Assembly: GCA_965226245.1 (NCBI GenBank)
Contig: CBDDCL010000015.1
Span: 1,839,412 to 1,903,411 of the forward strand
DNA: 64,000 bases
Direction: 5' to 3'
Source of the DNA: Bryobacterales bacterium
GTDB taxonomy: Bacteria > Acidobacteriota > Terriglobia > Bryobacterales > UBA6623
Shown: one piece after another, positions 2,881 to 35,792 of the stretch
Layout: each line of letters begins with the position of its first letter
How positions within the stretch are numbered: position 1 is the stretch's first letter
Made by a program: the position numbers and the translations under genes
Notes under the pieces: generated by a model
Database searches by the model: none
What the model was told of the DNA's origin: nothing
The model's input: only the letters and a program-made list of their open reading frames with translations

Positions 2881-2922
2881 GGGTTCGGTGAAAAGTGAGG
2901 ACTGTCAGAGTTGCTCGGTGAG

Positions 2923-3020
2923 AGCCTTGAGCCGCGAAGCGGCGCCGGATCGTAGCCCATGGGTGGAGCGAAGCGGAACCCTGGGTCCAAAACCCCTCGA
3001 GGCGAAAGCCCCGCAAGGGG
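2923..3020. repeat. R-family repeat copy R1 (about 100 bp, chain of five short hairpins; BIME/REP-like)
   Basis: agccttgagccgcgaagcggcgccggatcgtagcccatgggtggagcgaagcggaaccctgggtcc.aaacccctcgagg..aagccccgcaagggg is nearly identical to 11621-11720 and 42004-42099. Confidence 0.8.
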
Positions 3021-3377: not shown

Positions 3378-3411
3378 CGGCTCAACGGATCACCGGCTCA
3401 ACAGCTCAACG
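3378..3411. repeat. Third array of the 8-bp unit (CGGCTCAA CGGATCAC CGGCTCAA CAGCTCAA)
   Basis: Read directly. It overlaps the stop codon of the 3406-4545(-) gene. Confidence 0.7.
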
Positions 3412-4545
3412 TATGAGCCCTTCTCCGAGCCGCACTAAATCCTCGTCGTCGTTGAAAAAGTGAGGGGAGACTCGCAGGTTGCCTTTCCGCGCCGCCACGG
3501 CGATGCGCCGATCGCGCAGCCGAACCGCCAGCGCCGAGACGTCAACGCCAGGGAACTGCGCCGTCACAATCGGTGAATCGTAGTGAGGATGCTCATCGCT
3601 TGCCAGCCGTCCTCCGCGGGAGCGAAGGACCTCCCGCGTTGTCTCCGCGAGTTGCTGGACACGCCTCTCAATCGCCGCCGGGCCGATCGAATGAATTAGA
3701 TCCAGGACCGCTCCCATGGCGAAGATGCCGCTGAAGTTCTGTATCCCGCCTTCGTACTTGATCGCGCTCGGCGGCAGCTCCGGGACGCCGTGATGCAACT
3801 GGTCGACATCACGCCAGTTCTTGTGACTGCGCCAGCTATAGAGGCTCGGCTTTAGCCACTCCCTTACCCGCGGAGCGACATAAGCGAACCCGATTCCGGT
3901 TGGCGAAAGCATCCACTTGTAGGCGTGCACGACCAGGAAATCGATCGCCGCTGCCTGAACGTCAATCTGCAGCGCCCCGACGCTTTGCGTTCCATCCACG
4001 TAAAAAAGGACGTCTCTCTTTCGCAGCTCGAGGCCGATTGCTTCGATTGGCGGACGAAGCCCAGTGGAGTAGTTCACGGTACTCATCAAGACCAGCCGCG
4101 TTCGTGGCGCCAGCGTCTCGAAAAAACGATCCAGCGAAAAGCGGCCACCCGACAGTTCAAGCTCCGTCAGTGAAACGCCGCCGCTCCCGAGCACTTTGGG
4201 GTAGTAAAGATTGTTGGGAAATTCGTGAGTGAGGGTGACAATTTCATCGCCCGATTTCCAGTCGATTCCGCCGATGAGCCACCCGAGCGCCGCTCCGGCG
4301 TTTGGAATGAATGCAATGTCATCGGCCCCGGCCCCTACAAGTTTCGCGGCTCCCGCCCGCACGACATCCGCTTGGGTATACCAGTCGAGAAAGCCGAGCG
4401 AAGCTGTCTCATCACGGTTCCGGAGGTGCGCCGCCGCCGCTTCCGCCGCGCACAACGGGACCGGCCCAAACGTCGCCGTATTGAGGTAGACCCAATCCTT
4501 CAGGACCGGAAACTGCTCCCGCAGCCGTTGCCATTCGGTAGACAT
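3406..4545 (-). CDS. Aminotransferase class V-fold PLP-dependent enzyme (cysteine desulfurase/epimerase-like)
   Basis: 379-aa ORF with PLP-lysine context VVHAYKWMLSPTGIGFAYV and N-terminal YLNTATFGP typical of class V aminotransferases. Confidence 0.85.
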   Translation of the reverse strand: MSTEWQRLREQFPVLKDWVYLNTATFGPVPLCAAEAAAAHLRNRDETASLGFLDWYTQADVVRAGAAKLVGAGADDIAFIPNAGAALGWLIGGIDWKSGDEIVTLTHEFPNNLYYPKVLGSGGVSLTELELSGGRFSLDRFFETLAPRTRLVLMSTVNYSTGLRPPIEAIGLELRKRDVLFYVDGTQSVGALQIDVQAAAIDFLVVHAYKWMLSPTGIGFAYVAPRVREWLKPSLYSWRSHKNWRDVDQLHHGVPELPPSAIKYEGGIQNFSGIFAMGAVLDLIHSIGPAAIERRVQQLAETTREVLRSRGGRLASDEHPHYDSPIVTAQFPGVDVSALAVRLRDRRIAVAARKGNLRVSPHFFNDDEDLVRLGEGLIR

Positions 4546-5056: not shown

Positions 5057-5190
5057 GAGCCGTTGAGCCACGTTCACGTGGCTTGGTCTCCTTTAGGCCG
5101 GTCCTTTTAGGGCCGGTTGAACAGCCCTCGCGAAGTTGCTCCTCAGCCCGTTTCAACGGGCTTTCATTCCGCCCCCTGATCACGACCGTC
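5057..5190. repeat. Left arm of a long (~134 bp) inverted repeat pair
   Basis: gagccgttgagccacgttcacgtggcttggtctcctttaggccggtcc...cagcccgtttcaacgggctttcattccgcc...gatcacgaccgtc. Its reverse complement recurs at 5888-6018 with only a few mismatches or indels. Confidence 0.85.
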
Positions 5191-5667
5191 CCCCGGCAAC
5201 TGCCTAGGGCGCGTCGCCCCGAGGTGGCGCGCGCCTCCTGGCGGGCAGCGTCGGCCTCCGGGCCGGCGTCGCCCCGGCACAGTCCCGTCAGCCGGGGCGC
5301 CTAGCGTGGAGGCGTCCCCCGTGAAAGTGATGGAACCGGCCATCGCTTCCCCAAAAACGGGTCACGTTATTGCAAGACTTTTATTCCCTTTCAAGTCATA
5401 CGTTTAAAGAAATCCACTCCTAATTCCCCGCCGACCACCTGCTGATCTGAATATGTGAGACCGCTCCGCGACTTTCTAGGACCGTTGAGCCCCGCGCCTC
5501 CCGCGCGTGGTCCGGGGAAGTCGTTTCCCGTGGCCTCCAATCCGTATTCGCGATGCCAGAACGTCCAGAGATCCTGGCTGGAACAACAAAAACACACGAT
5601 TCAGGACCCAAAAGGGTCAAATCACCAGGGAGTCTGCCATGGGCCGCCGCGACCCTTTGGAGTCAAG

Positions 5668-5824
5668 CCACTGAAAACAAAAACACTATCCGTCGACACC
5701 AACTACGAGAAGCAAAAAACGCCGACAAGTCCAGTATATGTGCCATTCTCTGCCATTCTCTGCCATTTCATGGAGAAACTTTATAAAATCTTATGCCCCA
5801 ACCGACAACCTCTTTCGTTTCAAC
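5668..5824. repeat. AT-rich conserved module, copy A (CCACTGAAAACAAAAACACTAT ... TGCCATTCTC x3 ... GAAACTTTATAAAA ... CAACCTCTTTCGTTTC)
   Basis: Homologous to 32657-32804 and 60738-60892. On the minus strand it has TTGTCG (5808-5803), a 17-nt spacer and TATAAA (5785-5780). Decamers at 5741-5770. Confidence 0.8.
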
Positions 5825-5887
5825 AACTCTATTTAGACTCTCGCGGTTGCGGGCAGTGCCGGCGCGCCCTTTCGCAGTTGCCGCGAG

Positions 5888-6018
5888 ACGGTCGTGATCA
5901 GGGCGGAATGAAAGCCCGTTGAAACGGGCTGAGGAACAACTTCGGGGGGCTGTTCAACCGGCCCTAAAAGGACCGGCCTAAAAGGAGACCAAGCCACGTG
6001 AACGTGGCTCAACGGCTC
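5888..6018. repeat. Right arm of the long inverted repeat pair
   Basis: gacggtcgtgatcagggcggaatgaaagcccgttgaaacgggctg...gagaccaagccacgtgaacgtggctcaacggctc is the reverse complement of 5057-5190. Confidence 0.85.
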
Positions 6019-11353: not shown

Positions 11354-11620
11354 GTAGATCTCCTCCCTCCTTTTCGGCTCCCATCATGGAAAGTTGAGAG
11401 TATTGTTGGCTACAAACCCCTCTTCAAAGCAATTGCCCTGCCAAACCTCGGGGGCTTACTTCATATCGTTGTATCGCAAGCGTCTAGCTCTCTCTTCGGG
11501 CGAAGCTCTTCCTCTCGGGTCGCCTGCGATACAACACTAAGATATTATATCATTAGCTATCCGTGGACAAGCGCTATGTAGTTCGTTTCGTGGCACTCAG
11601 CCCCAATGCTGTTCACCTAA

Positions 11621-11720
11621 AGCCTTTTGAGCCGCGAAGCGGCGCCGGATCGTAGCCCATGGGTGGAGCGAAGCGGAACCCTGGGTCCGAAACCCCTCGA
11701 GGGAGAAGCCCCGCAAGGGG
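11621..11720. repeat. R-family repeat copy R2
   Basis: Near-identical to R1 and R3. ISa copy 1 is inserted 9 bp after its last hairpin (CCCCGCAAGGGG). Confidence 0.8.
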
Positions 11721-12658: not shown

Positions 12659-13685
12659 ATGGGGTATTTAGTTGACTCCAGTAGCCACAATATGTTGTGG
12701 TTGGGGGCATGAAGGAGGACTACCCCCGAAACCTCGTCGAGTTGGAAGCTCGATTCTCGACCGAGGAGGCGTGCCGGGAGTACCTGCTGAAGCTGCGCTG
12801 GCCGGAGGGGTTCGTGTGCCCGCGCTGTGGGATCCAGTCCTCATGGGCCAGCAAACGCAATCTGCTGCTCTGCGCCGACTGCGGTTACCAGGCCTCGGTG
12901 ACGGCGGGCACGATTTTCCAGGACACCCGCAAGCCCTTGACGTTGTGGTTCCGGGCGGCTTGGTGGGTGACAACGCAAAAAGGCGGGGCCAGCGCGCTGG
13001 AGTTGCAGCGGGTCTTGGGTTTGGGTAGCTATGTAACCGCCTGGACCTGGCTGCACAAGTTCCGCCGCGCCATGGTGCGCCCCGGTCGCAATCGGCTGGT
13101 CGGCCGGGTGGAGGTGGACGAAACGTATGTGGGCGGAGTCGAAGAGGGCGTCCGAGGTCGCGAAATGGTTGGCAAAGCGTTAGTTGCGGTTGCTGCCGAG
13201 GAGGATGGGCGCGGTATGGGTCGCATCCGGCTCCGTCGGATCGCGGATGCCTCAGCGGCGAGCTTGGAAGCCTTTGTCGAAGAAGCTATCCAACCTGGCA
13301 GCCTCGTGCACACCGACGGCTGGGAAGGCTATGCGGGATTGGAGAACAAAGGATACCGCCATGAAGTCACCGTGCTGCGCGGGAAGCGGCAATCGGCGAG
13401 TAAGCTGCTGCCGAGAGTCCATCGTGTCGCCTCTCTGCTAAAGCGCTGGCTGTTGGGGACCCACCAGGGGGCTGTCAGTCACGAGTATTTGGACTACTAC
13501 CTGGACGAGTTCACGTTCCGCTTCAACCGGCGGACCTCACGGTCGCGCGGCAAACTTTTCTATCGCCTCCTCCAGCAGGCGGTCGCCGCCGACCCTGCTC
13601 CCTATAAGACAATGGTCGAGGCCACCAGGGCCGGCACCCCCACCCCCAAGATGTAGTGGCTACTGGAGTCAACTAAATACCCCAT
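12659..13685 (+). mobile_element. ISb copy 1 (IS1595/ISXO2-like, 1027 bp) nested in ISa
   Basis: Inverted ends atggggtatttagttgactccagtagccac / gtggctactggagtcaactaaataccccat. The 8-bp duplication CAAGCGCA is at 12651-12658 and 13686-13693. The uninterrupted target gaacaagcgcattgtcag is seen in the other ISa copies. Confidence 0.92.
12709..13656 (+). CDS. IS1595-family (ISXO2-like) DDE transposase with N-terminal zinc ribbon
   Basis: MKEDYPRNL..., CPRCG...CADCG zinc ribbon, VEVDETYVGG and LVHTDGWEGY acidic motifs. ATG at 12709 (the track starts at GTG 12697). Confidence 0.9.
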   Translation: MKEDYPRNLVELEARFSTEEACREYLLKLRWPEGFVCPRCGIQSSWASKRNLLLCADCGYQASVTAGTIFQDTRKPLTLWFRAAWWVTTQKGGASALELQRVLGLGSYVTAWTWLHKFRRAMVRPGRNRLVGRVEVDETYVGGVEEGVRGREMVGKALVAVAAEEDGRGMGRIRLRRIADASAASLEAFVEEAIQPGSLVHTDGWEGYAGLENKGYRHEVTVLRGKRQSASKLLPRVHRVASLLKRWLLGTHQGAVSHEYLDYYLDEFTFRFNRRTSRSRGKLFYRLLQQAVAADPAPYKTMVEATRAGTPTPKM

Positions 13686-15068: not shown

Positions 15069-15126
15069 ATGCGCAACCGACATCGGGAATTAAATGGATA
15101 CACCATTCCTTGTTTACTCTCTTACA

Positions 15127-16924
15127 CCTGAATTATGCACAGGTTCGGCGTAGCCATCGCCGATGGAGTTGTGGCGGTAGCGGCAGTCGTGTCAACTCAG
15201 TGATTTAGCAAGTCGTCTTTTCTGCTGTTTCCTTCCCGGTTTGAGCCGCCTCCCAATTCCGGGCGGGCAAAAGCGGGCTCGCAAACGGCATGTTCCCAGT
15301 AGCTTGCGGCCCGTGCATAAAATTCTATGCGCAGCGCCCCTCAACGCAGCGCACCCTCCACCACCGGCGCGCAGCTCGATCCCGGCGGCGCCATCGCCCG
15401 CAGCCGCCGCATCAGCCGCTCGAACAGGCCCTGCTCCTGGTACTGATCGCTGTAGCTGATGCCCGTTCTGCCGGCATGCCGCCAGATCTTGGCCGCCACG
15501 AACAGAAAGCGCAGCCGCGCCGTCGCCAGGGTGGTGTGGCGCAGCTTCTCCGGGGTGGCGTCGGCTTCGCGCTGGAACAGCAGCAGCCAGCAGTTGAGGT
15601 TGTAGGCCAGCATGACCAACTGAAAGTGATTGCGGTTCATGTCAAAGCGGCGCGAAGGATGGGCCGCCAGCCCGGCGTCGTTGTTGGCTTCTTTGATGAG
15701 GTTCTCCGCCCCAGCCCGCTGGTTGTAAAACCACGCCACCGCCGCGATCGGCTCGGTGAGGTTGGTGACGAACACGCGGTAGGTGTAAGCGCTGGTTGCA
15801 AACAACTGATATTGCTCGACTTCGTCGGTTTCCGGCTCCTTTTCATAACGCAGCGCGACAAAGCGGCAGGCCCTGCCCCAGCCTTGCGGCTGGTAGAGGA
15901 ATTCGCACTCCGCCGCAGCGTCGCTGTGGGGCGAGGGCTTCCATTCCGCTTGCTGCAACTGCTCGACCAGTCGCCTGGTCTTGCGCGCCACGATGACGAA
16001 CTGACAATGCGCTTGTTCGTAGGCTGCCACCGCTTCCCAGCAATAAAAGCCGGAATCGGCCCGCGCCAAGATCCGCTTCACACTGGCCGGCAAAGCCTGG
16101 AAAGCACTTTCGAGGTGCGCCGCGATCTCTTTGCCCGTGGGCCGGTCGCCATTGTGCAACCCGCCCATCAGGTATTCGCGCGTCTCGGCCAGGAAGGTCA
16201 GTATCGGCTGGTAGCTGCGCTTGCCCTTGTTCTTGGGGTTGTAGCTCTTGCGCCCGCCCATCTGCTGGCCGTAGAGGGTGTGCACGGTGGTGTCGGTGTC
16301 CAGCGTCACCGTGGTCAACCGCACGTTGGCCGCCGCCCAGGCTCGTTCGCGCAGTTGGCGCTGCATCGACAGGATCTGCCGCGCCACGTTGAGATGCAGC
16401 GAGGCCAGAAAGCGCCACAGCGTGGATTGCGGCGGCAGCCGCGTCACTTGCAAGATGCCGGTCAGGATGGGGTCGCGCGCGATGAAGCGGAGTTGGTTGA
16501 GCCGCGCAAAGCCGACATAGAAGCCCAGCACGAGGGCCAGCACAAACTGGTAGAGGCTCATCACACGGGTGATTCGTTTGACGCTGAGGGTTTGTTCCAG
16601 CAGCTCTTGGAAGCCGAGTTTTTCGAGCAGGGTGGCGACCGGCAGCAGGCCGCCGTAGGGAGTCAGATTCTTGCCGCGGAAGTGATAGGGCGTGGAAGCC
16701 CCGATTTTATTGGGCTGCGGAGCCGTCGCGCCGCGGCCTTGTTTGGCGGGGTTTTTGGAGCTATGCTGTTTTCGCTTGGTAACCATTTGGGTGACCTCCT
16801 TGGGGTTGGCTGGCGAAGCTGAAATCTTTGCCAGCCTACCTTATTACCCCATGTTTTCGGGGGTCGCCCAATGGTCCCTCGCGGCACAGCCCTCCTCAGG
16901 TGTACCCGCAGTGCATAATTCAGG
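15127..16924 (-). mobile_element. ISa copy 2 (1798 bp), intact
   Basis: Terminal CCTGAATTATGCAC inverted repeats. The 5-bp duplication TTACA is at 15122-15126 and 16925-16929. Inserted after codon 11 of the GT2 gene. Confidence 0.92.
15341..16786 (-). CDS. ISa transposase (IS1380-family-like DDE, 481 aa)
   Basis: VTLDTDTTVHTLYGQQ, ARADSGFYCWE and FYNQRAGAENLIKEANND (Y-x2-R-x3-E-x3-K) motifs. SD aaggagg before the ATG. Confidence 0.9.
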   Translation of the reverse strand: MVTKRKQHSSKNPAKQGRGATAPQPNKIGASTPYHFRGKNLTPYGGLLPVATLLEKLGFQELLEQTLSVKRITRVMSLYQFVLALVLGFYVGFARLNQLRFIARDPILTGILQVTRLPPQSTLWRFLASLHLNVARQILSMQRQLRERAWAAANVRLTTVTLDTDTTVHTLYGQQMGGRKSYNPKNKGKRSYQPILTFLAETREYLMGGLHNGDRPTGKEIAAHLESAFQALPASVKRILARADSGFYCWEAVAAYEQAHCQFVIVARKTRRLVEQLQQAEWKPSPHSDAAAECEFLYQPQGWGRACRFVALRYEKEPETDEVEQYQLFATSAYTYRVFVTNLTEPIAAVAWFYNQRAGAENLIKEANNDAGLAAHPSRRFDMNRNHFQLVMLAYNLNCWLLLFQREADATPEKLRHTTLATARLRFLFVAAKIWRHAGRTGISYSDQYQEQGLFERLMRRLRAMAPPGSSCAPVVEGALR

Positions 16925-17435
16925 TTACACTAGTCAAGTTCTTGCTAGTCGTAGTTAGTGTCGGTTTTTTTGCGCTCGGCGTCGACGATCTCTTGGTTGA
17001 CATCTGCTACGCAGTCCGGCGTTTGTATCGCCGGCTCTTCGTGGAGCGGCGATACAAATCACTCAGCGAAAGTGATCTCCTCGAAAAGAGCGAACAGCCT
17101 GTTGCCATTATGATTCCTACCTGGCAGGAGTCTGGCGTCATCCGGCAGATGCTAGAGAATACGCTGCGGACGGTAACTTACTCAGACTTTGAGATCTTCG
17201 TTGGCACGTACCAAAACGACGAAGAGACAGCAGCCGCGGTAGAGAAGGCCCGCGAGCAATCGCACCGCGTTCACCGAATTGTCTGTCCCAAGGACGGGCC
17301 AACCAGCAAAGCCGACTGCCTCAACTGGATCTATCAGGGGATCCGGTCCTTTGAGGCTCGCAACAGCGTCAAGTTCGCATTCTATGTCATGCATGACTCG
17401 GAGGATATCGTTCACCCGCTCTCGCTAAAGTTGTT

Positions 17436-18472
17436 GATGGGTATTCACTTGACTCAGGTATTTTGAAATGGCCCCTACATGTTGTGGTTGTCCGTAGCGC
17501 GTGTTGCGGTGCCTCCGACCAGCGACTTGTAGGGCGCCGGTTGGACGGCGACGGCCTGCTGAACCAGGCGGTAGAAGAGCTTGCCTCGGCTTCTGGACTT
17601 GCGGCGGTTGAAGCGGAAGGTGAATTCGTCGAGGTAGTAGTCGAGATGCTCGTGGCTGACGGCTCCTTGATGCGTACCCAGTATCCAACGCTTCAGTAAC
17701 GACACCACGCGATGCACGCGGGGGAGCAGTTGAGAGGCTCGTGCCGGTTGCCCGTCCAGGTAGCTCACCTCGTGGCGATAGCCGTCGCTTTCGAGTGGCT
17801 CGTATCCCAGCCAGCCGTCCGTGTGGACCACGCTGCCGGGTTCGACCGACTCGCCGACGAAGGCCATCAAGCTGTCCCCAGAGGCGTTCGGAATCGTGCG
17901 CATCCGAACTCGTCCGATGCCGGCGCCATCTTCCTCGGCCGCTACTACAATCAGCGCTTTCGCGTCGGTTTGGCGGCCCCGCACGCCCTCCTCCAGGGCT
18001 CCTAAGTAAGTCTCGTCAACCTCAACGCGCCCGCTGAGGCGATCACGTCCGGGCCGCACCATAGCGCGCCGAAGCTTGTGCAACCAAGTCCAGGCCGTCT
18101 TGTAGCTGCCCAGGCCCAACACCCGCTGCAATCCCAATGCACTCGCCCCGTTCTTCTGGCTGGTGAGCCACCACATTGCTCGAAACCAACTCTGGAGCGG
18201 CTTGCGGGTGTCTTGAAAGATTGTGCCTGCTGTCGCCGAAGCTTGATGCCCGCAGCTTGCACACTGCAGCAGCACCGTGCGCACCGCCCAGGTTTTGTCA
18301 TGCCCGCATCGCGGACAACGAAAACCCTCCGGCCAGCGGAGTTGACACAGATACTCCCGACAGGCCTGCTCGCTAGCGAAACGCGCCTCGAACTCGGCCA
18401 AATTCCGGGGATAATCTTCCATCGCCCAAGATCCTACATCTTGGGGTCACCTGAGTCAAGTAAATACCCATC
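17436..18472 (-). mobile_element. ISb2 (diverged IS1595/ISXO2-like relative of ISb, 1037 bp)
   Basis: Ends gatgggtattcacttgactcaggt / acctgagtcaagtaaatacccatc. The 8-bp duplication AAGTTGTT is at 17428-17435 and 18473-18480. Confidence 0.88.
17475..18422 (-). CDS. IS1595-family (ISXO2-like) transposase, 315 aa
   Basis: MEDYPRNLAEFEARF..., CPRCG...CASCG, VEVDETYLGA, VVHTDGWLGY. Clearly homologous to, but distinct from, the ISb protein. Confidence 0.9.
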   Translation of the reverse strand: MEDYPRNLAEFEARFASEQACREYLCQLRWPEGFRCPRCGHDKTWAVRTVLLQCASCGHQASATAGTIFQDTRKPLQSWFRAMWWLTSQKNGASALGLQRVLGLGSYKTAWTWLHKLRRAMVRPGRDRLSGRVEVDETYLGALEEGVRGRQTDAKALIVVAAEEDGAGIGRVRMRTIPNASGDSLMAFVGESVEPGSVVHTDGWLGYEPLESDGYRHEVSYLDGQPARASQLLPRVHRVVSLLKRWILGTHQGAVSHEHLDYYLDEFTFRFNRRKSRSRGKLFYRLVQQAVAVQPAPYKSLVGGTATRATDNHNM

Positions 18473-18596: not shown

Positions 18597-20396
18597 CCTG
18601 AATTATGCACAGGTTCGGCGTAGCCATCGCCGATGGAGTTGTGGCGGTAGCGGCAGTCGTGTCAACTCAGTGATTTAGCAAGTCGTCTTTTCCGCGGTTT
18701 CCCTCCCGGTTTGAGCCGCCTCCCAATCCGGGCGGGCAAAAGCGGGCTCGCAAACGGCATGTTCCCAGTAGCTTGCAGCAAGTGCATAAAATTTTATGCA
18801 TGGAGCACCTCTCAACGCAGCGCACCCTCCACCACCGGCGCGCAGCTCGATCCCGGCGGCGCCATCGCCCGCAGCCGCCGCATCAGCCGCTCGAACAGGC
18901 CCTGCTCCTGGTACTGATCGCTGTAGCTGATGCCCGTTCTGCCGGCGTGCCGCCAGATCTTGGCCGCCACGAACAGAAAGCGCAGCCGCGCCGTCGCCAG
19001 GGTGGTGTGCCGCAGCTTCTCCGGGGTGGCGTCGGCTTCACGCTGGAACAGCAGCAGCCAGCAGTTGAGGTTGTAGGCCAGCATGACCAACTGAAAGTGA
19101 TTGCGGTTGGTGTCAAAGCGGCGCGAAGGATGGGCCGCCAGCCCGGCATCGTTGTTGGCCTCCTTGATCAGGTTTTCCGCCCCGGCCCGCTGATTGTAAA
19201 ACCACACCACCGCCGCGATCGGCTCGGCCAGGTTGGTCACAAACACGCGGTAGGTGTAAGCGCTGGTTGCAAACAACTGATATTGCTCGACCTCCTCGGT
19301 TTCCGGCTCCTTTTCATAACGCAGCGCGACAAAGCGGCAAGCCCTGCCCCAGCCTTGCGGCTGGCAGAGGAATTCGCACTCCGCCGCAGCGTCGCTGTGG
19401 GGCGAGGGCTTCCATTCCGCTTGCTGCAACTGCTCGACCAGTCGCCTGGTCTTGCGCGCCACGATGACGAACTGACAATGCGCTTGTTCGTAGGCTGCCA
19501 CCGCTTCCCAGCAATAAAAGCCGGAATCGGCCCGCGCCAAGATCCGCTTCACACTGGCCGGCAAAGCCTGGAAAGCACTTTCGAGGTGCGCCGCGATCTC
19601 TTTGCCCGTGGGCCGGTCGCCATTGTGCAACCCGCCCATCAGGTATTCGCGCGTCTCGGCCAGGAAGGTCAGTATCGGCTGGTAGCTGCGCTTGCCCTTG
19701 TTCTTGGGGTTGTAGCTCTTGCGCCCGCCCATCTGCTGGCCGTAGAGGGTGTGCACGGTGGTGTCGGTGTCCAGCGTCACCGTGGTCAACCGCACGTTGG
19801 CCGCCGCCCAGGCTCGTTCGCGCAGTTGGCGCTGCATCGACAGGATCTGCCGCGCCACGTTGAGATGCAGCGAGGCCAGAAAGCGCCACAGCGTGGATTG
19901 CGGCGGCAGCCGCGTCACTTGCAAGATGCCGGTCAGGATGGGGTCGCGCGCGATGAAGCGGAGTTGGTTGAGCCGCGCAAAGCCGACATAGAGGCCCAGC
20001 ACGAGGGCCAGCACAAACTGGTAGAGGCTCATCACACGGGTGATTCGTTTGACGCTGAGGGTTTGTTCCAGCAGCTCTTGGAAGCCGAGTTTTTCGAGCA
20101 GGGTGGCGACCGGCAGCAGGCCGCCGTAGGGAGTCAGATTCTTGCCGCGGAAGTGATAGGGCGTGGAAGCCCCGATTTTATTGGGCTGCGGAGCCGTCGC
20201 GCCGCGGCCTTGTTTGGCGGGGTTTTTGGAGCTATGCTGTTTTCGCTTGGTAACCATTTGGGTGACCTCCTTGGGGTTGGCTGGCGAAGCTGAAATCTTT
20301 GCCAGCCTACCTTATTACCCCATGTTTTCGGGGGTCGCCCAATGGTCCCTCGCAGCTCAGCCCTCCTCAGGTGCACCCCGCAGTGCATAATTCAGG
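18597..20396 (-). mobile_element. ISa copy 3 (1800-bp sequence variant), intact
   Basis: Same terminal repeats. The 5-bp duplication TTCCA is at 18592-18596 and 20397-20401. It differs from the 1798-bp variant mainly in the transposase 3' third and both subterminal regions. Confidence 0.92.
18812..20257 (-). CDS. ISa transposase (variant allele, 481 aa)
   Basis: Full-length ORF with a few substitutions relative to the other copies (e.g. FLCQPQ, PETEEVEQ, NLAEPIAAVVW, RFDTNRN). Confidence 0.9.
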   Translation of the reverse strand: MVTKRKQHSSKNPAKQGRGATAPQPNKIGASTPYHFRGKNLTPYGGLLPVATLLEKLGFQELLEQTLSVKRITRVMSLYQFVLALVLGLYVGFARLNQLRFIARDPILTGILQVTRLPPQSTLWRFLASLHLNVARQILSMQRQLRERAWAAANVRLTTVTLDTDTTVHTLYGQQMGGRKSYNPKNKGKRSYQPILTFLAETREYLMGGLHNGDRPTGKEIAAHLESAFQALPASVKRILARADSGFYCWEAVAAYEQAHCQFVIVARKTRRLVEQLQQAEWKPSPHSDAAAECEFLCQPQGWGRACRFVALRYEKEPETEEVEQYQLFATSAYTYRVFVTNLAEPIAAVVWFYNQRAGAENLIKEANNDAGLAAHPSRRFDTNRNHFQLVMLAYNLNCWLLLFQREADATPEKLRHTTLATARLRFLFVAAKIWRHAGRTGISYSDQYQEQGLFERLMRRLRAMAPPGSSCAPVVEGALR

Positions 20397-21210
20397 TTCC
20401 AAGAACCTCGTGGTGCGCGAGTTTCTCAGTCACACCATGCCCTGTGCGGGTGTTGGGTGCGCTTTTAGCCGTGAGGTGTTTGAGACATTCGTCGAGGCGG
20501 ATCCAGACAATTTGTTCAACGTCGAGTCGTTGACAGAGGACTATGAGTTTGGACTGCGCCTCCGGGACTATAGCTGGAAAGCGATCTTTGTGAATAAGGC
20601 CCTGAAACGAACCGTTGTCGAAACAGATCCAAATTCCGGCGAAGAACGGCGGTCGAAGGTCTCCGATTACGTCGCTACAAGGGAGTTGTTCCCTAACAAA
20701 CTTTCCGCGGCGGTCCGTCAAAAATCCCGCTGGGTGATTGGCATTGCCCTGCAAGGCTGGCGGAATTTGGGTTGGAGAGGTACGTGGGCCGCGCGCTATG
20801 CGTTTCTGCAGGACAGGAAGTGTCTATTAGGAAATCACCTGAACATGGCGGGATACGCTCCGCTGGGCTGTCTGCTGTTGCTGTGGATCCCAACCGTAGT
20901 CGATCCCGGGCGGTACAGTTTTCCCGTCCTGGTCACGACTGGCTCCTGGCTATGGTATATCCTCTGGGTCGATCTAGTATTTCTGCTGAATCGGCTTGTT
21001 CACCGCTCGTTTTTCGTCTGGCGGATCTACGGCTGGAAGCAGGGCCTGTGCTCCATTCCAAGGGCCATCTGGGGCAATGTAATTAACTTTCTTGCGGTCG
21101 TTCGGGCTGTATATCTCTACGGGCGCTATCTACTCACCAGAAAACCCATCGGTTGGGACAAGACCGGACATGTTTTCCCGTCCGCACTGACCTTTAGCAA
21201 AACTTACGGG

Positions 21211-21369
21211 CGTTTGGGCGATTTGTTACTCGAACAGCGGTCCATCACAGTAGACCACCTGCTGGCTGCCTTACAGGTACAGCGGCAACGTCGGCTGCCT
21301 TTGGGATTGATTCTAAAAGATCTTAGGTACGTCGAGGAGCGCCATCTGCAGCGCGCACTCACCCGCCAA
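21211..21369 (+). other. Tandem MshEN-type c-di-GMP-binding motifs in the GT2 C-terminal domain
   Basis: RLGDLLLEQRSITVDHLLAALQVQ followed by LPLGLILKDLRYVEERHLQRALTRQ, compared with the published MshEN consensus RLGxx(L/V/I)(L/V/I)xxG(L/V/I/F)(L/V/I)xxxxLxxxLxxQ. The first-motif Gly is replaced by Arg. Confidence 0.6.
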
Positions 21370-23612
21370 ATTGAAAGTGCAACCCCATTGCCTCCGCCAA
21401 AGCGGCTCGTTTCGGATCTTTTGCGGAAACTGCCTCGCGATATGGCTTCCTCTTGCTCCGCGATTCCGGTAGACGAAGATCAGGAAGGGCGGGTCGTCAT
21501 CGCCACGAGCGAGATCTTGAGCCGGGAAAAAATCGAGGCTCTTCAAGCCCGCTTTGACAAGCCCATAAGGATTCAGCTGGCAGAGCGCAAAGAAGTGGGA
21601 TTGCTGATCGAGCGGGCCTACGGCTCGTGAAGTGAAACGTCAGCTCGGGAGATGCCGGTCAGCTAAATAACAACTCTTGGTAACGACTCGCCCAAACCGA
21701 ACTTTGGAAGGCATGACTTGTATGCAACGACCCAGCTATAAACCGCCTTCGATCCTTATTCTGACCGTAGCGTTGTTGGGGGCGTGTCAACTATGGGCGC
21801 CCCGGGCTGGAGCAGCCCCGGACCCCAACGTCGCCAAGACCGCCGAGCGTGGCTGGATCTCGAGAGAATACCATCGTATACGTAACCACCTTGTTCTCAG
21901 CGAGACCCATCGGCTCGTGGCGTCGCCATGGTGCGCGGTGAACTCGAAAATGCCCGCCACAAGCTGGAAACTCACCTCCGTGACCAGCCTCGAGATATAC
22001 CGGCAAGGCGCCAATACCTTACCGTGCTTGACCGTTTGGGGCTTCACCCGAAAGTCATACAAGAAGCGACGCTTCTCATCGACCAAGACCCCGAGTTTCG
22101 CGATGCCAGGCTCTACCGCGCGGGGGCCTACCAAGCGGTCGGTAGGATCCGAGAAGCGGTGTCCGACTTTCAAGCAGTGGGCATTGACCAAGCAAACGAG
22201 CAGGCAGACCGGATCTACGCGCTGAATATGGCCGCGGACCTGGCCCTCGGTCAGCAACTTTACAGCGAGGCGCTGGATTCGCTAGCGCATCTGGCAGCAT
22301 TCTCGCAAACTTATGCTGTCTACTTTCGCAGGGGTTTGGCGCTGGAGGGGGCGGGCCGGGTGTCCTCGGCGACGGAGGCTTACAAGCTCGCTCTCGAGCG
22401 GGCGAGCACGGATGAGGAGCGGCTCGGCGCCCTCCGTGGGCTAGGTGGGACGGCCCGAAAAAGCGGGGATTCGGGCGCGGCGTACAAGGTGTTTTCCAAA
22501 GCCCACCAACTAAGGTCCGACGATGTGTTCGTGCTGCGCAGCTTGGCTGAGATCACTCGTTCGCAGAAGCAATTTCGGGAAACTGCAGGGTGGGCCCGGC
22601 AGGTTCTTGCCATTACCCAGGACCCAAGTGATAGAGAGTTCCTTGCAAGTGTCCTTTACCAGAGCAAGGACTACTCAGGAGCAGCCAGAGAGTATTCAAT
22701 CCTGAAGGCGGATGTTGATCCGCCGCGGAGAGTGCGAGCTTACCGCGCTCTGGCGAATATTGCTGGCCGGCAGGGTAATTTCTCTTCCGAAAAACGCCAT
22801 CTGATGTCAGCGCTGAGTCTAGACTCCCGGAATGCTGAGGTGCTCCGGGCGCTGGCCCACAACAGCTCTAAACAAAGAGACTACGAGGCTAGCGTCAATT
22901 GGATAAAAAAGGCGAGGGCCGCCCAGCCCAAGTTGGAAGACCACATCCTTCTAGCCAACGGGTTGATCGAGCTTGGCCGGTTTCAGGACGCCGTTAAACA
23001 GTGGACCATCGTGCTTTCCGGGCTAAAGGTTCCCCGGAACAGACATCCAATCTTGGTGTCGTTGGGTCACACCCACACTCTGGCGGGTGATCAGGCCTCC
23101 GCTACAGCAGCTTTTCGTGAAGCTGCTCGCATTCGTCCGGACGTGCTCACCCTAACAGCCCTCGCACACTCTCTGGAAGCAGCACAGTCTTTGAGTGAAG
23201 CGATTGAGATTTGGGAAGCTGTGCTCGAGCAAAGTCCATCCCCGGAAACGCACTACAGATTAGGAGTACTCTTCGCCCAAGCCGGCGAAGATCTCCAGGC
23301 TCTCAACCATTTATCCAAGGCGGCACAGAACGGTCTATCAATAGAGCTGAAGGCTTCGGCATATAAGCAACTGGGTTACCTCTACCAGAAATCCGGCCAG
23401 CTGAGGCAAGCTCTTTCGGCCTTCGAAAAGGCGGTTACTCGGGACGAGAAAGATTCCGTGCTCTACCTGGCGCTGGGCAACTTATCCATGCAGATGCATG
23501 AGTACGGGAAAGCGATCCACTACTTTCAGCTCGGCCTCGCAATCGAGCACACACCAGAGCTTATTCGAGGGCTAACTGTGGCTGAGGTTCAGGCGTCAGG
23601 CGAACTGTTGCA

Positions 23613-25410
23613 CCTGAATTATGCACTGCGGGTACACCTGAGGAGGGCTGTGCCGCGAGGGACCATTGGGCGACCCCCGAAAACATGGGGTAATAAGGTA
23701 GGCTGGCAAAGATTTCAGCTTCGCCAGCCAACCCCAAGGAGGTCACCCAAATGGTTACCAAGCGAAAACAGCATAGCTCCAAAAACCCCGCCAAACAAGG
23801 CCGCGGCGCGACGGCTCCGCAGCCCAATAAAATCGGGGCTTCCACGCCCTATCACTTCCGCGGCAAGAATCTGACTCCCTACGGCGGCCTGCTGCCGGTC
23901 GCCACCCTGCTCGAAAAACTCGGCTTCCAAGAGCTGCTGGAACAAACCCTCAGCGTCAAACGAATCACCCGTGTGATGAGCCTCTACCAGTTTGTGCTGG
24001 CCCTCGTGCTGGGCCTCTATGTCGGCTTTGCGCGGCTCAACCAACTCCGCTTCATCGCGCGCGACCCCATCCTGACCGGCATCTTGCAAGTGACGCGGCT
24101 GCCGCCGCAATCCACGCTGTGGCGCTTTCTGGCCTCGCTGCATCTCAACGTGGCGCGGCAGATCCTGTCGATGCAGCGCCAACTGCGCGAACGAGCCTGG
24201 GCGGCGGCCAACGTGCGGTTGACCACGGTGACGCTGGACACCGACACCACCGTGCACACCCTCTACGGCCAGCAGATGGGCGGGCGCAAGAGCTACAACC
24301 CCAAGAACAAGGGCAAGCGCAGCTACCAGCCGATACTGACCTTCCTGGCCGAGACGCGCGAATACCTGATGGGCGGGTTGCACAATGGCGACCGGCCCAC
24401 GGGCAAAGAGATCGCGGCGCACCTCGAAAGTGCTTTCCAGGCTTTGCCGGCCAGTGTGAAGCGGATCTTGGCGCGGGCCGATTCCGGCTTTTATTGCTGG
24501 GAAGCGGTGGCAGCCTACGAACAAGCGCATTGTCAGTTCGTCATCGTGGCGCGCAAGACCAGGCGACTGGTCGAGCAGTTGCAGCAAGCGGAATGGAAGC
24601 CCTCGCCCCACAGCGACGCTGCGGCGGAGTGCGAATTCCTCTACCAGCCGCAAGGCTGGGGCAGGGCCTGCCGCTTTGTCGCGCTGCGTTATGAAAAGGA
24701 GCCGGAAACCGACGAAGTCGAGCAATATCAGTTGTTTGCAACCAGCGCTTACACCTACCGCGTGTTCGTCACCAACCTCACCGAGCCGATCGCGGCGGTG
24801 GCGTGGTTTTACAACCAGCGGGCTGGGGCGGAGAACCTCATCAAAGAAGCCAACAACGACGCCGGGCTGGCGGCCCATCCTTCGCGCCGCTTTGACATGA
24901 ACCGCAATCACTTTCAGTTGGTCATGCTGGCCTACAACCTCAACTGCTGGCTGCTGCTGTTCCAGCGCGAAGCCGACGCCACCCCGGAGAAGCTGCGCCA
25001 CACCACCCTGGCGACGGCGCGGCTGCGCTTTCTGTTCGTGGCGGCCAAGATCTGGCGGCATGCCGGCAGAACGGGCATCAGCTACAGCGATCAGTACCAG
25101 GAGCAGGGCCTGTTCGAGCGGCTGATGCGGCGGCTGCGGGCGATGGCGCCGCCGGGATCGAGCTGCGCGCCGGTGGTGGAGGGTGCGCTGCGTTGAGGGG
25201 CGCTGCGCATAGAATTTTATGCACGGGCCGCAAGCTACTGGGAACATGCCGTTTGCGAGCCCGCTTTTGCCCGCCCGGAATTGGGAGGCGGCTCAAACCG
25301 GGAAGGAAACAGCAGAAAAGACGACTTGCTAAATCACTGAGTTGACACGACTGCCGCTACCGCCACAACTCCATCGGCGATGGCTACGCCGAACCTGTGC
25401 ATAATTCAGG
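23613..25410 (+). mobile_element. ISa copy 4 (1798 bp), intact
   Basis: Terminal repeats as above. The 5-bp duplication TTGCA is at 23608-23612 and 25411-25415. Confidence 0.92.
23751..25196 (+). CDS. ISa transposase (481 aa)
   Basis: Differs from the 15341-16786 copy by a single residue (GLYVG here versus GFYVG there); the 34112-35557 protein as listed is identical. Confidence 0.9.
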   Translation: MVTKRKQHSSKNPAKQGRGATAPQPNKIGASTPYHFRGKNLTPYGGLLPVATLLEKLGFQELLEQTLSVKRITRVMSLYQFVLALVLGLYVGFARLNQLRFIARDPILTGILQVTRLPPQSTLWRFLASLHLNVARQILSMQRQLRERAWAAANVRLTTVTLDTDTTVHTLYGQQMGGRKSYNPKNKGKRSYQPILTFLAETREYLMGGLHNGDRPTGKEIAAHLESAFQALPASVKRILARADSGFYCWEAVAAYEQAHCQFVIVARKTRRLVEQLQQAEWKPSPHSDAAAECEFLYQPQGWGRACRFVALRYEKEPETDEVEQYQLFATSAYTYRVFVTNLTEPIAAVAWFYNQRAGAENLIKEANNDAGLAAHPSRRFDMNRNHFQLVMLAYNLNCWLLLFQREADATPEKLRHTTLATARLRFLFVAAKIWRHAGRTGISYSDQYQEQGLFERLMRRLRAMAPPGSSCAPVVEGALR

Positions 25411-27679
25411 TTGCAAGACGCAGATTCGCATACGAAACCGGCACTACTCAAGCAGGCAGCCGAGCGATTTCTGGCTGCATATGAAGAGTCCGATGACGCT
25501 GATCTCCTAGCGCAGACCGCTCAAGCCTACTACCTCGCTGGAGACTGGCCGGAAGCGAGCAAGACTTACGAGCGACTGATGGCGCTGCCTGGCTTAGCCC
25601 AAAATACTCTGGGACTGGCTTTGGAGAACTTGGGGTTCATTGCGCTCCGTGAAGGCCGATCAGACCAGGCGGTTGATTTTCTGAGCCAGGCGATCAAACA
25701 GGGAGGTGCCGGTTCCCGCTTGAGGCAGAACTTAGGGCTTGCTCTCTATTCTGAGCGACGTTGGCGCGAAGCCCTGGAGCAGTTTCATGCCGCCTCCGAG
25801 GAGAAGAAGGACTCCCAGGTGCTGATTTACGTGGCGCGGTGTTACAAGGAATTGAATAAGCCTGGCCTAGCCATTAAGTTCTTCAGAGAGGCACTTGCCA
25901 TTGGGAAAAGTATGCAGCCTTCCGAGCGACGCGAAGTCCTCAGCGAGCTGGGCTACCTCTACGCCGGTCAGCCAGACTACGCCGAGGCGGCGTCGGCTTG
26001 GCGTCAGGTCCTTGTCCTCAAAGAAGAACCGGCAGTCCGCATTCGGCTGGCTCGGGTGGAGCGGCTGGCTTCGGAGATCGAGAACGCGCAGACAACACTG
26101 GAGACGATCGAGGTTGGGTCCCTGCCTTCGGAGCTTATTGCTGAATACTTCGAGGAACGCGCGGAGCTAGCCTACGCCGGAGGTCAAACCGCCCAAGCGG
26201 TGGAGCACTTGGAATCATCGGCCTCCCTAGCTCCCGAACCTGGACGCTTGCTCCGGCTGGGACTTCTATACGACGAAATCGACGAGATTGACAGGTCGAT
26301 CGAGGTCCTCGAGAACGCTCGACAACTCGACCCTCAAAGCACTCGTATCGCTGAAGCTCTAGGTTATGCCTACGCCCGGCGGGATGAACTGGACCGGGCT
26401 ACCGAAGTCTTCGAAGAGGTCGCCGATCGGGATCCGCACAACTCCAATGTGACTCGGGATCTGGCCTACCTCCTCATGAAACATGGCAGAAACGAGCAGG
26501 CCCGAACTTGGTTCCGCCACTCAATTGATTATCAGCCGCAGCCCCCTGAAGCAACTCGGGATCTGCATCCCGACGAAATCGAGGAGAACTTCCGCGTCAG
26601 GAAAGAGATCTCAAAACTGGGCAATCGCGTCGACCTGATTCCCTATTTTTCGTACTCTTCGGCTGATCGCAGTCAGCCGGCGGCTTTCGCCGCAGTGGGC
26701 GGGACGGCGATCCCGTCCCAAGGCGGTGTCGAACTGGCTTACACCCCGCGGCGCTTTGGTCTGCGCAACGACCGCGTCTTCCAAGTCTTCGGACGCGTGC
26801 TAGGGAACCTCCAACCGGCTTCTCTCAGTATGGACAACGAGAGTTACCAGGGAGGAATCGGCGCCCGCTACAAGCCGCTTCCGACACAGAATTTGTACTT
26901 CTCCGGAGAGCGGCTGTTTAAGATCGGCTCGAATTCCTTCAACACTTGGTTCCTGCGCAGTCATTATTCTTGGGCGAGCGAGTACGGGGTGAAGCCGCTG
27001 CGAAAAGCCTGGAACCACACCATGTTCTACGGCGACATCGGCTACTTGACCTCTCCTGATCTGTTCACGATGTACGGAGAAGCACGACAGGGCGTCACTT
27101 TTCGTTTCGGCGATGGCTTCCTCGTGACACCTCACGCGCTGGTGGCTGGCCGGAACTACAATCCGAACAGAAATGTCAGCTCGTATCTTGAAGGCGGTGC
27201 TGGTGTCGCATTCAAAGTGTTGTACAACGACAGTCTCTACGACGTACATCGTTCCGGATTCGAGGTGGCGGTACAATACCGCTGGGGAATCATATCCGCG
27301 CTGGCGCCGCTCTTGAATCAGCCGAGGTTCGGCGGGCTCGTGATCAGTACAATGCTTCAGTTTTGAGGGAAACTTTTGGTGTCGACGATTTACTCTCGCA
27401 GTAGAATTCTACTAGTGGCAGCTTTGGCCCTTGTCGCCGCCGGAAGGTCGCGTGAACTTCCGCCATCCGTTCTAATTCAAGGAACCTTTTTGCAGTTGTG
27501 GGACGATCATGCCCAATGGAGCGATTCCCAGTGGGACAAGCTGTTTGGATACTTCGAAGAGTTGCAAATGAGGACCCTGGTGGTCCAGTGGACGGTCTAC
27601 GACTCGACGGCGTTCTATGAATCGGATCAGTTCGAGGCAGTCGGAACGCTGCCAGTTGAGGGAATCCTGAAAAGAGCCG

Positions 27680-32313: not shown

Positions 32314-32656
32314 GACGGCCCTCGAGGCCGCGGTCGCCGTGAACCTCGTCAACCCGCGCAGGCGTAAGCATCCGCCACCGCCCACGCGCCAAGCAACAGT
32401 AGAGGAACGAGTAGAGCAACAGTAGAGGAAACGCAAGGAGAGAGGAGCCAAGGAATGATTCAAGGGCCAAACGATGTGGCGCAAGTGGCGCGCGCCTCCT
32501 GGCGGGCAGCGTCGGCCTCCGGGCCGGCGTCCGTCGCGGACACCCCAAGCACATCGTCCGGCCCGCGCAAGACACGAAAACGTCACGAATCCGCACGGAC
32601 AACGGCGTCTTTTACGCGGAATCTGCAATCGGGCCGCCGACCCCTCCCAATCCAAA

Positions 32657-32804
32657 CCACTGAAAACAAAAACACTATTCGTTTTCGTCGAAGAGAAGGC
32701 GCCAAAATCAGGGCAGTTTTACCCGAGACCCTGAAAAAATCTGTAAAAAACTGCAATTTTGTAAAGAAAATTTATACCCCAATCGGCAACCTCTATCGTT
32801 TCAG
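32657..32804. repeat. AT-rich conserved module, copy B (degenerate: lacks the TGCCATTYTC decamers and has a 10-nt deletion in the promoter spacer)
   Basis: CCACTGAAAACAAAAACACTATTCG...TTTGTAAAGAAAATTTATACCCCAATCGGCAACCTCTATCGTTTC. A 47-nt block upstream (32485-32531) is identical to 5224-5270. Confidence 0.75.
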
Positions 32805-32894
32805 CCGTTCGCTGGCCACCCAGTACGGAGTGTAGCGCGGCCCGGCTTCAAGACTGTGCTACCCTTTCCCCAACTCTCGAAAGGAGACGCCAAG

Positions 32895-33971: not shown

Positions 33972-33973
33972 CA

Positions 33974-35771: not shown

Positions 35772-35792
35772 TAACAGCAGGCGGATCTCCAG

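Follow-up and report, generated by a model that had tools for sequence, protein, structure and literature searches.

The 64,000-nt stretch analyzed here (the window; contig CBDDCL010000015.1, positions 1,839,412 to 1,903,411, of the Bryobacterales bacterium assembly GCA_965226245.1) carries three copies of an AT-rich intergenic module, all on the + strand: copy A at 5668 to 5824, copy B at 32657 to 32804, and copy C at 60738 to 60892. Copy A is neighbored by an aminotransferase gene and an ADH fragment, copy B by genes for a nucleoside hydrolase and an MBL-fold hydrolase (MBL, which starts 92 nt from B on the same strand), and copy C by SpoU/RlmB and ThuA genes. These neighbors are housekeeping genes unrelated to one another, and the rest of the window is ordinary chromosome heavily invaded by two insertion sequence (IS) families, with no tRNA gene and no Rfam match at the gathering score. 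For three of the flanking proteins, the named homologues come from Bryobacterales/Acidobacteriota metagenome-assembled genomes. Comparison loci fetched for the analysis carry L0xx labels; L014 is the locus of a metagenomic homologue, and L026/L027 and L037 hold orthologues of copy C. Five independent element sequences underlie the whole comparison. A gene lies downstream on the same strand at A, B, and L014 and at the orthologues of C, where it encodes a sulfatase.

It is well supported that the three copies belong to a family of low-copy, noncoding, mosaic intergenic elements of about 400 to 650 nt, made of two parts (a double hairpin resembling repetitive extragenic palindromic [REP] sequences and a constrained AT-rich core), and equally that this family is confined to a Bryobacterales-like acidobacterial lineage. 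The 21-mer CACTGAAAACAAAAACAYTAT has three matches in the window, all on the + strand (at 5669, 32658, and 60739), against zero expected from shuffled sequences; no fourth match was found in the window at up to three mismatches, a level at which shuffles again gave zero. A right-end motif is sited at 5805 in A, 32786 in B, and 60875 in C. The GC content of the modules (0.43, 0.39, and 0.41 for A, B, and C) is far below the 0.60 of the window, and that of the 250-nt core is 39 to 46% against a genome of 60% GC. Pairwise identity among copies is 65 to 78% over the 150-nt module and 67 to 77% over the 250-nt core. Copy A contains the 21-mer, three TGCCA decamers, TTTATAAA, and CAACCTCTTTCGTTTC; copy C has three decamers plus a degenerate one; and copy B has degenerate decamers (CTGNAA) in an unchanged 10-nt register, with the distance from TTTATA to CAACCTCT shortened by 10 nt. 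Translating A, B, C, L014, and L037 in all six frames revealed no common reading frame, since indels of 9 to 12 nt shift the frames. A type I toxin-antitoxin repeat (LDR/SIB-like) or other small conserved open reading frame (ORF) was ruled out, as no ORF is common to the copies.

Much of this had been anticipated in a preliminary description of the sequence, which recognized three co-oriented, AT-rich copies of a genuine noncoding repeat without a conserved ORF. Its finer claims needed adjustment. The left-end sequence that it gave as shared is present in all copies, but the pyrimidine that it allowed at one position is not found in B, which reads GAAAATTTATA; the right-end motif is present in all three, with a 1-nt deletion in C; and the homology that it traced upstream is real in all copies, although B's version of CTGCCAYGG is CTGCAATCGG. 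A partial inverted copy suggested at 49144 to 49165 was not upheld, as the match is 17/19 with a gap, scores 24 to 27 against shuffles with a mean of 19 and a maximum of 26 to 30, and drew no nhmmer hit.

With nhmmer, the full conserved core spans about 250 to 275 nt on the + strand, at 5561 to 5836 in A (E = 7e-73), 32551 to 32817 in B (E = 6e-71), and 60635 to 60908 in C (E = 9e-78; orthologues in L026, L027, and L037), adding ACAAAAACACACGAT.. and CTGCCATGGGCCGCCG 5′ of the 21-mer in A. Across the window and the fetched loci, the core hidden Markov model matched only A, B, C, and L014, plus C's orthologues. An alignment of A, B, C, and L014 gives a consistent order of blocks, beginning with GCAAGACACGAAAAC..CACGAATCCGCA, CTGCCAYSGG.CCGCCG, and the invariant 17- to 21-mer (CACTGAAAACAAAAACA) and continuing through a divergent middle, two to four TGCCA decamers, TTTTGTAAAGAAAYTTTATA (GTAAAGAAAYTTTATA), and CCCAAYCGRCAACCTCTWTCGTTTCAG (CAACCTCTWTCGTTTC). 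The divergent middle splits two subfamilies, A with C and B with L014. As for the relations between cores, A is nearer C and L014, and B is nearer L014 (74% identity over 296 nt). In the four aligned copies, the 21-mer is separated from TTTATA by 113/115/113/123 nt and TTTATA from CAACCTCT by 26/16/26/17 nt. The register of the TGCCA decamers relative to the 21-mer is constant to within ±1 nt despite indels of 11 to 12 nt in the divergent middle, and since such indels amount to about one helical turn, this pattern might suggest that proteins are placed on one face of the DNA.

Tandem decamers (TGCCA-N5-TGCCA) occur four times in the window, confined to A and C, where 0.15 occurrences would be expected; their number is 2, 3, or 4 and varies among orthologues as well as paralogues. 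The earlier account of them as iterons was correct as to the repeats themselves, but they are not iterons of the plasmid type, given the variable number and the lack of a Rep gene. Among the genes of the window, no rep, par, integrase, or Y1-transposase gene is found near the copies. Copy B had been regarded as probably dead because of its spacer and its missing decamers. The spacer is indeed 10 nt shorter and the decamers are degenerate, but L014 shares the short spacer and has four intact, perfect decamers, which argues that the short form is a second, living subfamily and not a product of decay.

The second part of the element is a GC-rich block that lies 125 to 400 nt upstream of the core, in the same orientation, and consists of a GTGGCGC head followed by two GC hairpins. 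The blocks of A (5219 to 5271, +; head, hairpin 1, and hairpin 2) and B (32480 to 32535, +; preceded by GATGTGGCGC) are identical, and that of C (60516 to 60570, +) follows a duplicated GATGTGGCG unit. Two further blocks are solitary and core free. One of them (61912 to 61968, −) is situated between the stop of an SSF transporter gene and the start of ThuA; the other, more diverged (54143 to 54190, −), begins about 30 nt past the stop of an AP_endonuc_2 gene and has compensatory changes in both stems. A core-free block is additionally present in a relative's locus (L028), and in L014 the block is inverted and downstream of the core. In all, there are five blocks in the 64-kb window, one or two per 20 kb in L026 and L028, and none in L030 to L037; REPs number tens to hundreds per genome. 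Four of six interpretable blocks are located 30 to 170 nt behind the stop of a co-oriented gene.

In an alignment of eight block sequences, 94.8% of the cells in the stems of 8 and 9 pairs are paired, compared with 20 to 46% when partners are slid. Six pairs are doubly changed, and the observed covariation values were reached by none of 500 shuffles. The stems contain 10 G·U cells and no A·C cells, indicating that the fold forms on the + strand, and GTGG(CGC) is invariant in 8/8 aligned copies, 1 nt off the stem foot. The 47-nt stretch common to A (5224 to 5270) and B (32485 to 32531) was rightly reported as 100% identical, but it is not a continuation of the module's homology; it is part of this separate double hairpin, which also stands free. 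As the hairpin blocks of A and B are 100% identical and their cores 67% identical, block and core have different histories. A long-range stem around the block, seen in single-sequence folds (GGGCC..ACGATGTG with CACATCGT..GGCCC in B; TGGCGGCA with TGCCGCCA in C), was dropped because L026 has an uncompensated mismatch.

The GC block appears to be a new REP-type sequence. Among REPs, the GTAG tag is known to vary to GTGG and GTRG, and stems of 6 to 9 bp are described (PMC3733652). The present block of 47 to 55 nt likewise carries a GTGG head, one base away from the foot of its 7- to 8-bp GC stem, is extragenic, is dispersed in both orientations, is found mostly just behind a co-oriented gene, and keeps its stems by compensatory changes. 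It differs in that two unlike hairpins in direct order form one unit, in its longer conserved head (GTGGCGC), and in that no inverted REPIN doublet was seen here; no Y1_Tnp protein (the REP-associated tyrosine transposase) was detected among the window proteins scanned. This comparison covers the GC block and not the AT-rich core.

Between and beside the two parts, the copies vary considerably. The left segment of B (32400 to 32479, +) is purine rich and C poor (AGTAGAGGAAACGCAAGGAGAGAGGAGCCAAGGAA..) and is homologous to L014 130 to 165 and to C at 60470 to 60515. The left segment of C (60447 to 60515, +) begins straight after the SpoU stop and contains TGcTACAAT, which resembles an extended −10 element, and GGTGGAAACAAGCTAAGG. 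Hairpin block and core are separated by distinct insertions of about 200 to 300 nt in A and L014: in A by a segment of roughly 290 nt found in no other copy (5272 to 5560, +), and in L014 by a different insertion containing a long palindrome. The latter (L014 250 to 440) is a near-perfect palindrome of roughly 190 nt with GATGTGGCGC repeats on one side and the core on the other. The variable right tail of C (60893 to 61002, +) shows near-neutral evolution and palindrome indels among orthologues; L037 has a different palindrome there, with a 25-bp stem, and spacer and tail are insertion hot spots.

An exact-pattern scan with a 20-mer across 185,579 species genomes, among which the source lineage is unrepresented, returned 11 matches, all of them chance matches in AT-rich genomes. 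A metagenome scan (17-mer plus gap plus CAACCTCT) returned one true homologue, L014, and two chance matches. The single match in viral contigs was a chance match in coding DNA, blastn against phages and plasmids gave none, and the core resembles none of the ISs of the window or of the fetched loci, which total about 500 kb. The possibility, raised beforehand, that the copies are ends of a known IS or prophage was thereby answered in the negative for the IS, phage, and plasmid sequences compared.

Presence of the copies differs among close relatives. Copy C is kept between SpoU and the sulfatase gene in three related lineages with 93 to 94% SpoU identity (L026/L027 and L037) and is missing in a relative with 87% SpoU identity (L028). 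Copy B is missing in relatives whose hydrolases are 91%, 89%, and 79% identical, and copy A is missing in relatives with 93% and 84% identity. At the site of B, a 526-nt segment containing the element (32320 to 32845, +) replaces 6.8 kb of the 91%-identical locus L030, from the hydrolase stop to MBL, and as L032 and L033 also hold about 6 kb there, the long form is ancestral. The 6.8 kb of L030 (7580 to 14361) includes an IS3, several genes, and an AbgT-type transporter. The site of A measures 1.4 kb in the window versus 80 nt in L034. Next to C, the window is without the 1.5-kb sulfatase gene (L026 11360 to 12875) which L026, L037, and L028 have between SpoU and ThuA; its last roughly 15 nt (cctttgccgcgtta) remain, and the left breakpoint is at ~61003, at the edge of C's variable tail. 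All three site comparisons are thus rearrangements and not clean insertions, so that neither ends nor a target duplication can be defined. We conclude with good confidence that the family is gained, lost, and tied to local rearrangements among close relatives.

Selection was measured for copy C alone, by comparing its three orthologous loci with the adjacent SpoU gene. The conserved blocks have 15 variable columns out of 341 (4.4%), with 0/57 in the hairpin block, 0/21 in the 21-mer, and 2/54 in the left segment, in comparison to 12/80 (15%) in the spacer and tail and 33/148 (22%) at SpoU fourfold sites. The conserved blocks vary less than fourfold sites (P = 7e-9) and less than the copy's own spacer and tail (P = 0.0015); the difference between spacer plus tail and fourfold sites was not significant. 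The rate in the conserved blocks of C equals that of the first and second codon positions of SpoU. This low variation indicates purifying selection and that copy C is functional where it sits. A regulatory or RNA role, as proposed in the preliminary description, is therefore reasonable, because the sole window copy with orthologues is under selection; the minus-strand promoter through which that role was to be exerted is not family-wide.

That promoter was of the sigma70 type and would drive an RNA of roughly 130 nt leftward through the decamers toward a U-rich tract. Minus-strand hexamers at a spacing of 17 nt are present in A (TTGTCG-17-TATAAA), C (TTGCAG-17-TATAAA), and the C orthologue of L026 (TTGCGG-17-TATAAA), but the arrangement is not conserved: in B and L014 only 7 to 8 nt separate TTGYCG from TATAAA, and the best −35 hexamer at 17 to 18 nt matches at 3/6 positions. 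The minus-strand TATAAA itself is invariant across copies. A consensus promoter scanner called the minus-strand TTGnnn-17-TATAAA in no copy; its output was one plus-strand site in A and one unrelated minus-strand site in C. Since TTTATAAA is palindromic, it can be read on either strand, and on the plus strand the last decamer supplies a −35-like hexamer 15 to 16 nt before TATAMW in all five sequences (CTGCCA-16-TATAAA in A, CTGCAA-16-TATACC in B, CGCACA-16-TATAAA in C, GTGCCA-15-TATACT in L014, and CTGACA-16-TATAAA in L026). The plus-strand matches are weak (3 to 5/6 for the −35 and 4 to 5/6 for the −10), with L026 alone reaching 10/12. Read in this direction, the 10-nt indel would fall downstream of the −10, where a change in length is harmless. 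As a promoter candidate, the plus-strand arrangement appears at least as good as the minus-strand one, and neither is strong.

The composite of a REP-like double hairpin and a constrained AT-rich core matches no described family and falls within a known general class, that of dispersed intergenic mosaic or regulatory repeats. Bacterial interspersed mosaic elements (BIMEs) and RIP-type elements of enterobacteria, as well as regulatory MITEs (miniature transposable elements with inverted repeats) such as Correia/ERIC sequences, bind nucleoid proteins and carry promoter or terminator activity. The present element is similarly mosaic and intergenic, and its block and core differ in history. Unlike Correia and ERIC elements, which have terminal inverted repeats (TIRs), target-site duplications (TSDs), and high copy numbers, the present family is small and old (65 to 78% identity), and no TIRs or TSDs were found in it. 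Within BIMEs, REPs alternate in orientation at regular spacing, whereas no inverted partner is found within A, B, or C; BIMEs have been described as composites of palindromic REP units and other conserved motifs (PMC2817692). Putative mobile promoters have been defined as sequences of >50 nt that are ≥80% identical and lie no more than about 150 nt upstream of the start codons of nonhomologous genes (Matus-Garcia et al. 2012, PMC3488235). Our copies resemble them as homologous noncoding DNA beside nonhomologous genes, both in a single genome and among relatives, that is not an IS, a riboswitch, or a known RNA. They differ in that only B is within 150 nt of a start codon (92 nt), in the unit length of 250 to 450 nt, in a promoter activity that is here predicted, and in identities mostly below 80% (80.6% over 67 nt for A and B, 65 to 78% for most pairs).

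The mode of action of the family is left to candidate models, in which our confidence is low, and its function is unproven. From the sequence, we tentatively favor, as a possibility and not as an expectation, a portable regulatory cassette between co-directional genes, in which the core would be a phased protein-binding region combined with a weak rightward promoter. Like REPs, the hairpin block would serve the upstream gene's transcript as a 3′-end stabilizer or terminator. The AT-rich core would work at the DNA level, as a helically phased, putative protein-binding region with a weak, activator-type promoter, and the invariant 21-mer and the decamers would be candidate binding sites of a putative factor. 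The predicted promoter, a (C/G)TGCCA-like hexamer and TATAMW separated by 15 to 16 nt, would fire rightward (+) into the downstream gene. Copies may have been spread or lost via recombination or some form of mobilization, with deletions and inversions left at their edges.

Several points weigh against such a cassette. Promoters on both strands are sequence predictions; the −10 of B (TATACC) lacks the key final T, the spacer of L014 is 15 nt, the scanner's plus-strand call is limited to A, and the invariant bases of TTTATAAA fit the minus-strand TATAAA slightly better. Where relatives lack the element, MBL appears to retain a conserved upstream stretch of its own (49 nt), which suggests that B is not needed to supply MBL with a promoter. 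In the window, no + gene follows copy C now that the sulfatase gene is deleted, and there is no + strand gene before copy A. The argument from phasing is drawn from four or five related sequences, and slippage of the decamers explains part of it. The 21-mer is under the strongest constraint, yet its binder is putative. Outside the elements, about 150 kb of clade DNA has a single TGCCA-N5-TGCCA site, inside a coding region, and so gives no sign of a regulon. The selection result, finally, is limited to copy C. By-eye checks for sigma54 (TGGCAC-N5-TTGC) and extracytoplasmic function (ECF)-type motifs and for IHF, DnaA, and parS half-sites found wrong spacing.

Alternatives to the regulatory cassette were weighed against the same evidence. 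It is possible, though on balance unlikely, that the + strand acts as RNA, as a rut-like Rho-loading terminator, a small RNA (sRNA) derived from a 3′ untranslated region, or a protein sponge, with CU-rich (CCUCUUUC and UUCUCU) and A-rich (AACAAAAA) motifs as contact sites. The + strand of the core is A+C rich and G poor, with C/G ratios of 1.56 to 2.07 in all four diverged copies, and in C>G skew, 78-nt intervals of A and C take 2nd and 4th place across the 64 kb. It also folds poorly (−14 to −24 kcal/mol for every ~147 nt, with z-scores between −1.3 and +0.9), as expected of a Rho-loading site or an unstructured RNA, and it is always downstream of hairpins that fold on the + strand and, in B and C, behind a + strand gene. 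The little-varied left end of C, with its extended −10-like TGcTACAAT, also speaks for this reading, but this sequence is missing from B and L014. Moreover, rut sites are not normally conserved in sequence, as the 17- to 21-mer is here; indels of ~10 nt that preserve spacing make little evident sense in an unstructured RNA; by eye, C>G skew is absent from the divergent middle of B; and no terminator is conserved among the copies. Multicopy sRNA families and protein-sponge RNAs, such as CrcZ/CrcY and LhrC1-5, are the nearest known counterparts. The likeness consists in several diverged intergenic copies and in repeated short A-rich or CU-rich motifs with poor structure; here, however, no promoter or terminator is common to the copies, there is no conserved fold, and the motif number varies among orthologues. 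The leftward sRNA gene originally envisaged is distinctly doubtful. The 17-nt-spaced hexamers in A, C, and the L026 orthologue and the invariant TATAAA speak for it, and the conserved right block would fall upstream of such a promoter. Against it are the 7- to 8-nt spacers of B and L014, the silent scanner, the lack of a hairpin before the UUUUUGUUUUC tract in any copy (by eye), and homology and selection that reach far past the proposed 130-nt RNA. Consensus folds of the core give −3.0 kcal/mol on the + strand and −11.0 kcal/mol on the − strand with negligible covariation terms (−0.38 on the − strand), and single-sequence z-scores on the − strand are −0.3, −0.1, −2.4, and +0.7. These folds thus lend the claim of an sRNA gene family neither a conserved structure nor covariation. 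A structured RNA or Rfam family was ruled out, with no match at the gathering score in the 64 kb and nothing beyond noise in B and C at E ≤ 10.

The rearrangements around the copies invite a different explanation, which we consider improbable, namely, that the element is a nonautonomous mobile element whose internal blocks are sites for a transposase or recombinase encoded elsewhere, with deletions and inversions as by-products. Candidate sites would be, on the left, the GATGTGGCG repeats and, on the right, the inverted GAGAATGGCA repeats, along with the 21-mer and GAAAC-type inverted motifs. Such an origin would be consistent with presence and absence at all three sites among relatives that are about 90% identical, with the position of B exactly where 6.8 kb is missing, with a sulfatase deletion that begins about 70 nt past the conserved part of C, with the 160-nt inverted duplication that brackets A, with the inverted ATGTGGCGCAC sequences flanking the L014 element, and with the very IS-rich window. 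However, no TIRs or target-site duplications can be defined, a clean insertion is seen at none of the three "empty sites," the copies' homology passes the candidate TIR (CACTGAAAAC / GTTTCAGTG) leftward by >100 nt, and no similarity to ISs of the window or the fetched loci was found. Paralogues that are 65 to 78% identical imply no recent burst, and purifying selection across copy C at the level of first and second codon positions is unexpected for a parasitic MITE. A MITE with ACTGAAAACAAA / TTTCGTTTCAGT as TIR (11/16 by eye) was rejected, as homology continues more than 100 nt further left and there is no TSD. That the copies are a replication origin or partition site of plasmid or phage type, whose iterons would be the decamers, or else a decaying neutral repeat without function, is extremely improbable. 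Tandem 10-nt repeats do adjoin an AT-rich stretch and the copy number is low, but the three copies are chromosomal and lie between housekeeping genes, with no Rep, Par, or integrase gene near any of them and no phage or plasmid match, the decamers vary from 2 to 4 and are degenerate in B, and the outcome of the selection test for copy C contradicts neutral decay. There is, lastly, a small chance, which we rate as a long shot, that the core is a portable nucleoprotein site, a phased array of the 21-mer, decamers, TTTATAAA, and the CAACCTCT block that would be recognized by a putative acidobacterial binder, travel from one intergenic site to another with the REP-like unit, and reshape its neighborhood by deletions and inversions next to it.

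Next to nothing is known of noncoding regulatory DNA or RNA in the Acidobacteria, which are abundant and for the most part uncultured. The family described here unites purifying selection (on copy C), gain and loss among relatives that are about 90% identical, and a place at the junctions of deletions and inversions. Were it a portable regulatory cassette, it would provide a concrete case of promoter or terminator "reuse" rewiring neighboring genes in an environmental lineage, with the 21-mer as a handle on its binding factor. A portable nucleoprotein site, in turn, would amount to a mobile "terminator-promoter/insulator" or a landing pad for recombination, without a described family, and if it is a mere mosaic repeat, it would be a useful marker of genome plasticity for the clade, of local interest only.

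Other small repeats occur in the same intergenic DNA. Copy A is bracketed exactly by an inverted pair of a dispersed three-hairpin repeat of about 100 to 160 nt, which we call rep3 (AGCCCG-TTGAAA-CGGGCT ... GAGCCRCGTGAACGYGGCTC); the left arm of this 160-nt inverted repeat is at 5057 to 5216 (−), and the right arm, at 5860 to 6018 (+), is 92.6% complementary to it. Elsewhere, rep3 is single copy and intergenic (L026 12940 to 13035 and L030 2507 to 2601). A third small hairpin repeat, GCGYGGAC-N4-GTCCRCGCCTSTGTCCG, was found at 61064 to 61100 (−) in the window, at 11360 to 11392 in L026, and at about 11681 to 11715 and 17375 to 17400 in L028. It occupies different intergenic sites in each relative, and the intergenic DNA of the clade is a patchwork of several small repeat families. 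A 100-nt direct repeat (TTGAGCCGCGAAGCGGCGCCGGATCGTAGCCCATGGGTGGAGCGAAGCGGAACCCTGGG...), also present in L028, occurs in the window at 2918 to 3017, 11618 to 11717, and 42001 to 42100 (89 to 98% identical), and tandem 8-nt repeats (CGGCTCAA/CAGCTCAA) occur at 2124 to 2190 and 3378 to 3428, 1.2 kb apart. Directly upstream of the aminotransferase start, the window has an insertion of roughly 315 nt relative to L034 (4554 to 4868), with CTTAG on both sides; it contains CATCGACA..TGTCGATG, a hairpin of 8 perfect base pairs, and TTGAAAACAAATGACTT, a motif like that at 49144. The exact sequence TGCTACAAT, which resembles an extended −10 element, occurs just twice in the window, each time adjoining a hairpin block: at 60459 to 60467 (+), 50 nt 5′ of the block of C, and at 61888 to 61896 (−), 20 nt 3′ of the solitary block and 36 nt ahead of the start of ThuA. 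Its use as a general extended −10 motif was discarded for lack of enrichment (5 matches versus 6.3 expected).

The IS load is very high between 11.7 and 45 kb of the window, with about six copies or fragments of a 1.8-kb IS (e.g., 15126 to 16925, 23612 to 25411, 33973 to 35772, 18804 to 20378, and 43962 to 45048) and three of IS1595 (12697 to 13656, 17475 to 18422, and 27709 to 28668). The transposase of the 1.8-kb IS, DDE_Tnp_1_4, is a 481-amino-acid ORF on the strand opposite the longest ORF. IS insertions split a GT2/MshEN glycosyltransferase gene (16828 to 17466 and 20299 to 21630) and ended the MBL gene at 33972. About 190 kb of the 909-kb contig ERZ25766727 ctg361760 (L016 to L025) contained none of the small repeats of the window's clade; the contig is probably from another organism and thus uninformative in this respect. 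It has more than 10 IS1595 transposase copies identical to those of the window, and the same IS1595 has entries in 137 blocks of the collection, which suggests that it is shared across organisms. Exact protein matches place the window's region on the 7.19-Mb contig ENA ERZ28763718 ctg125699 (L012), the window being from a near-identical strain; against window positions 10.4 to 12.4 kb, this contig is longer by about 1 kb, the size of an IS, which points to IS polymorphism at the strain level.

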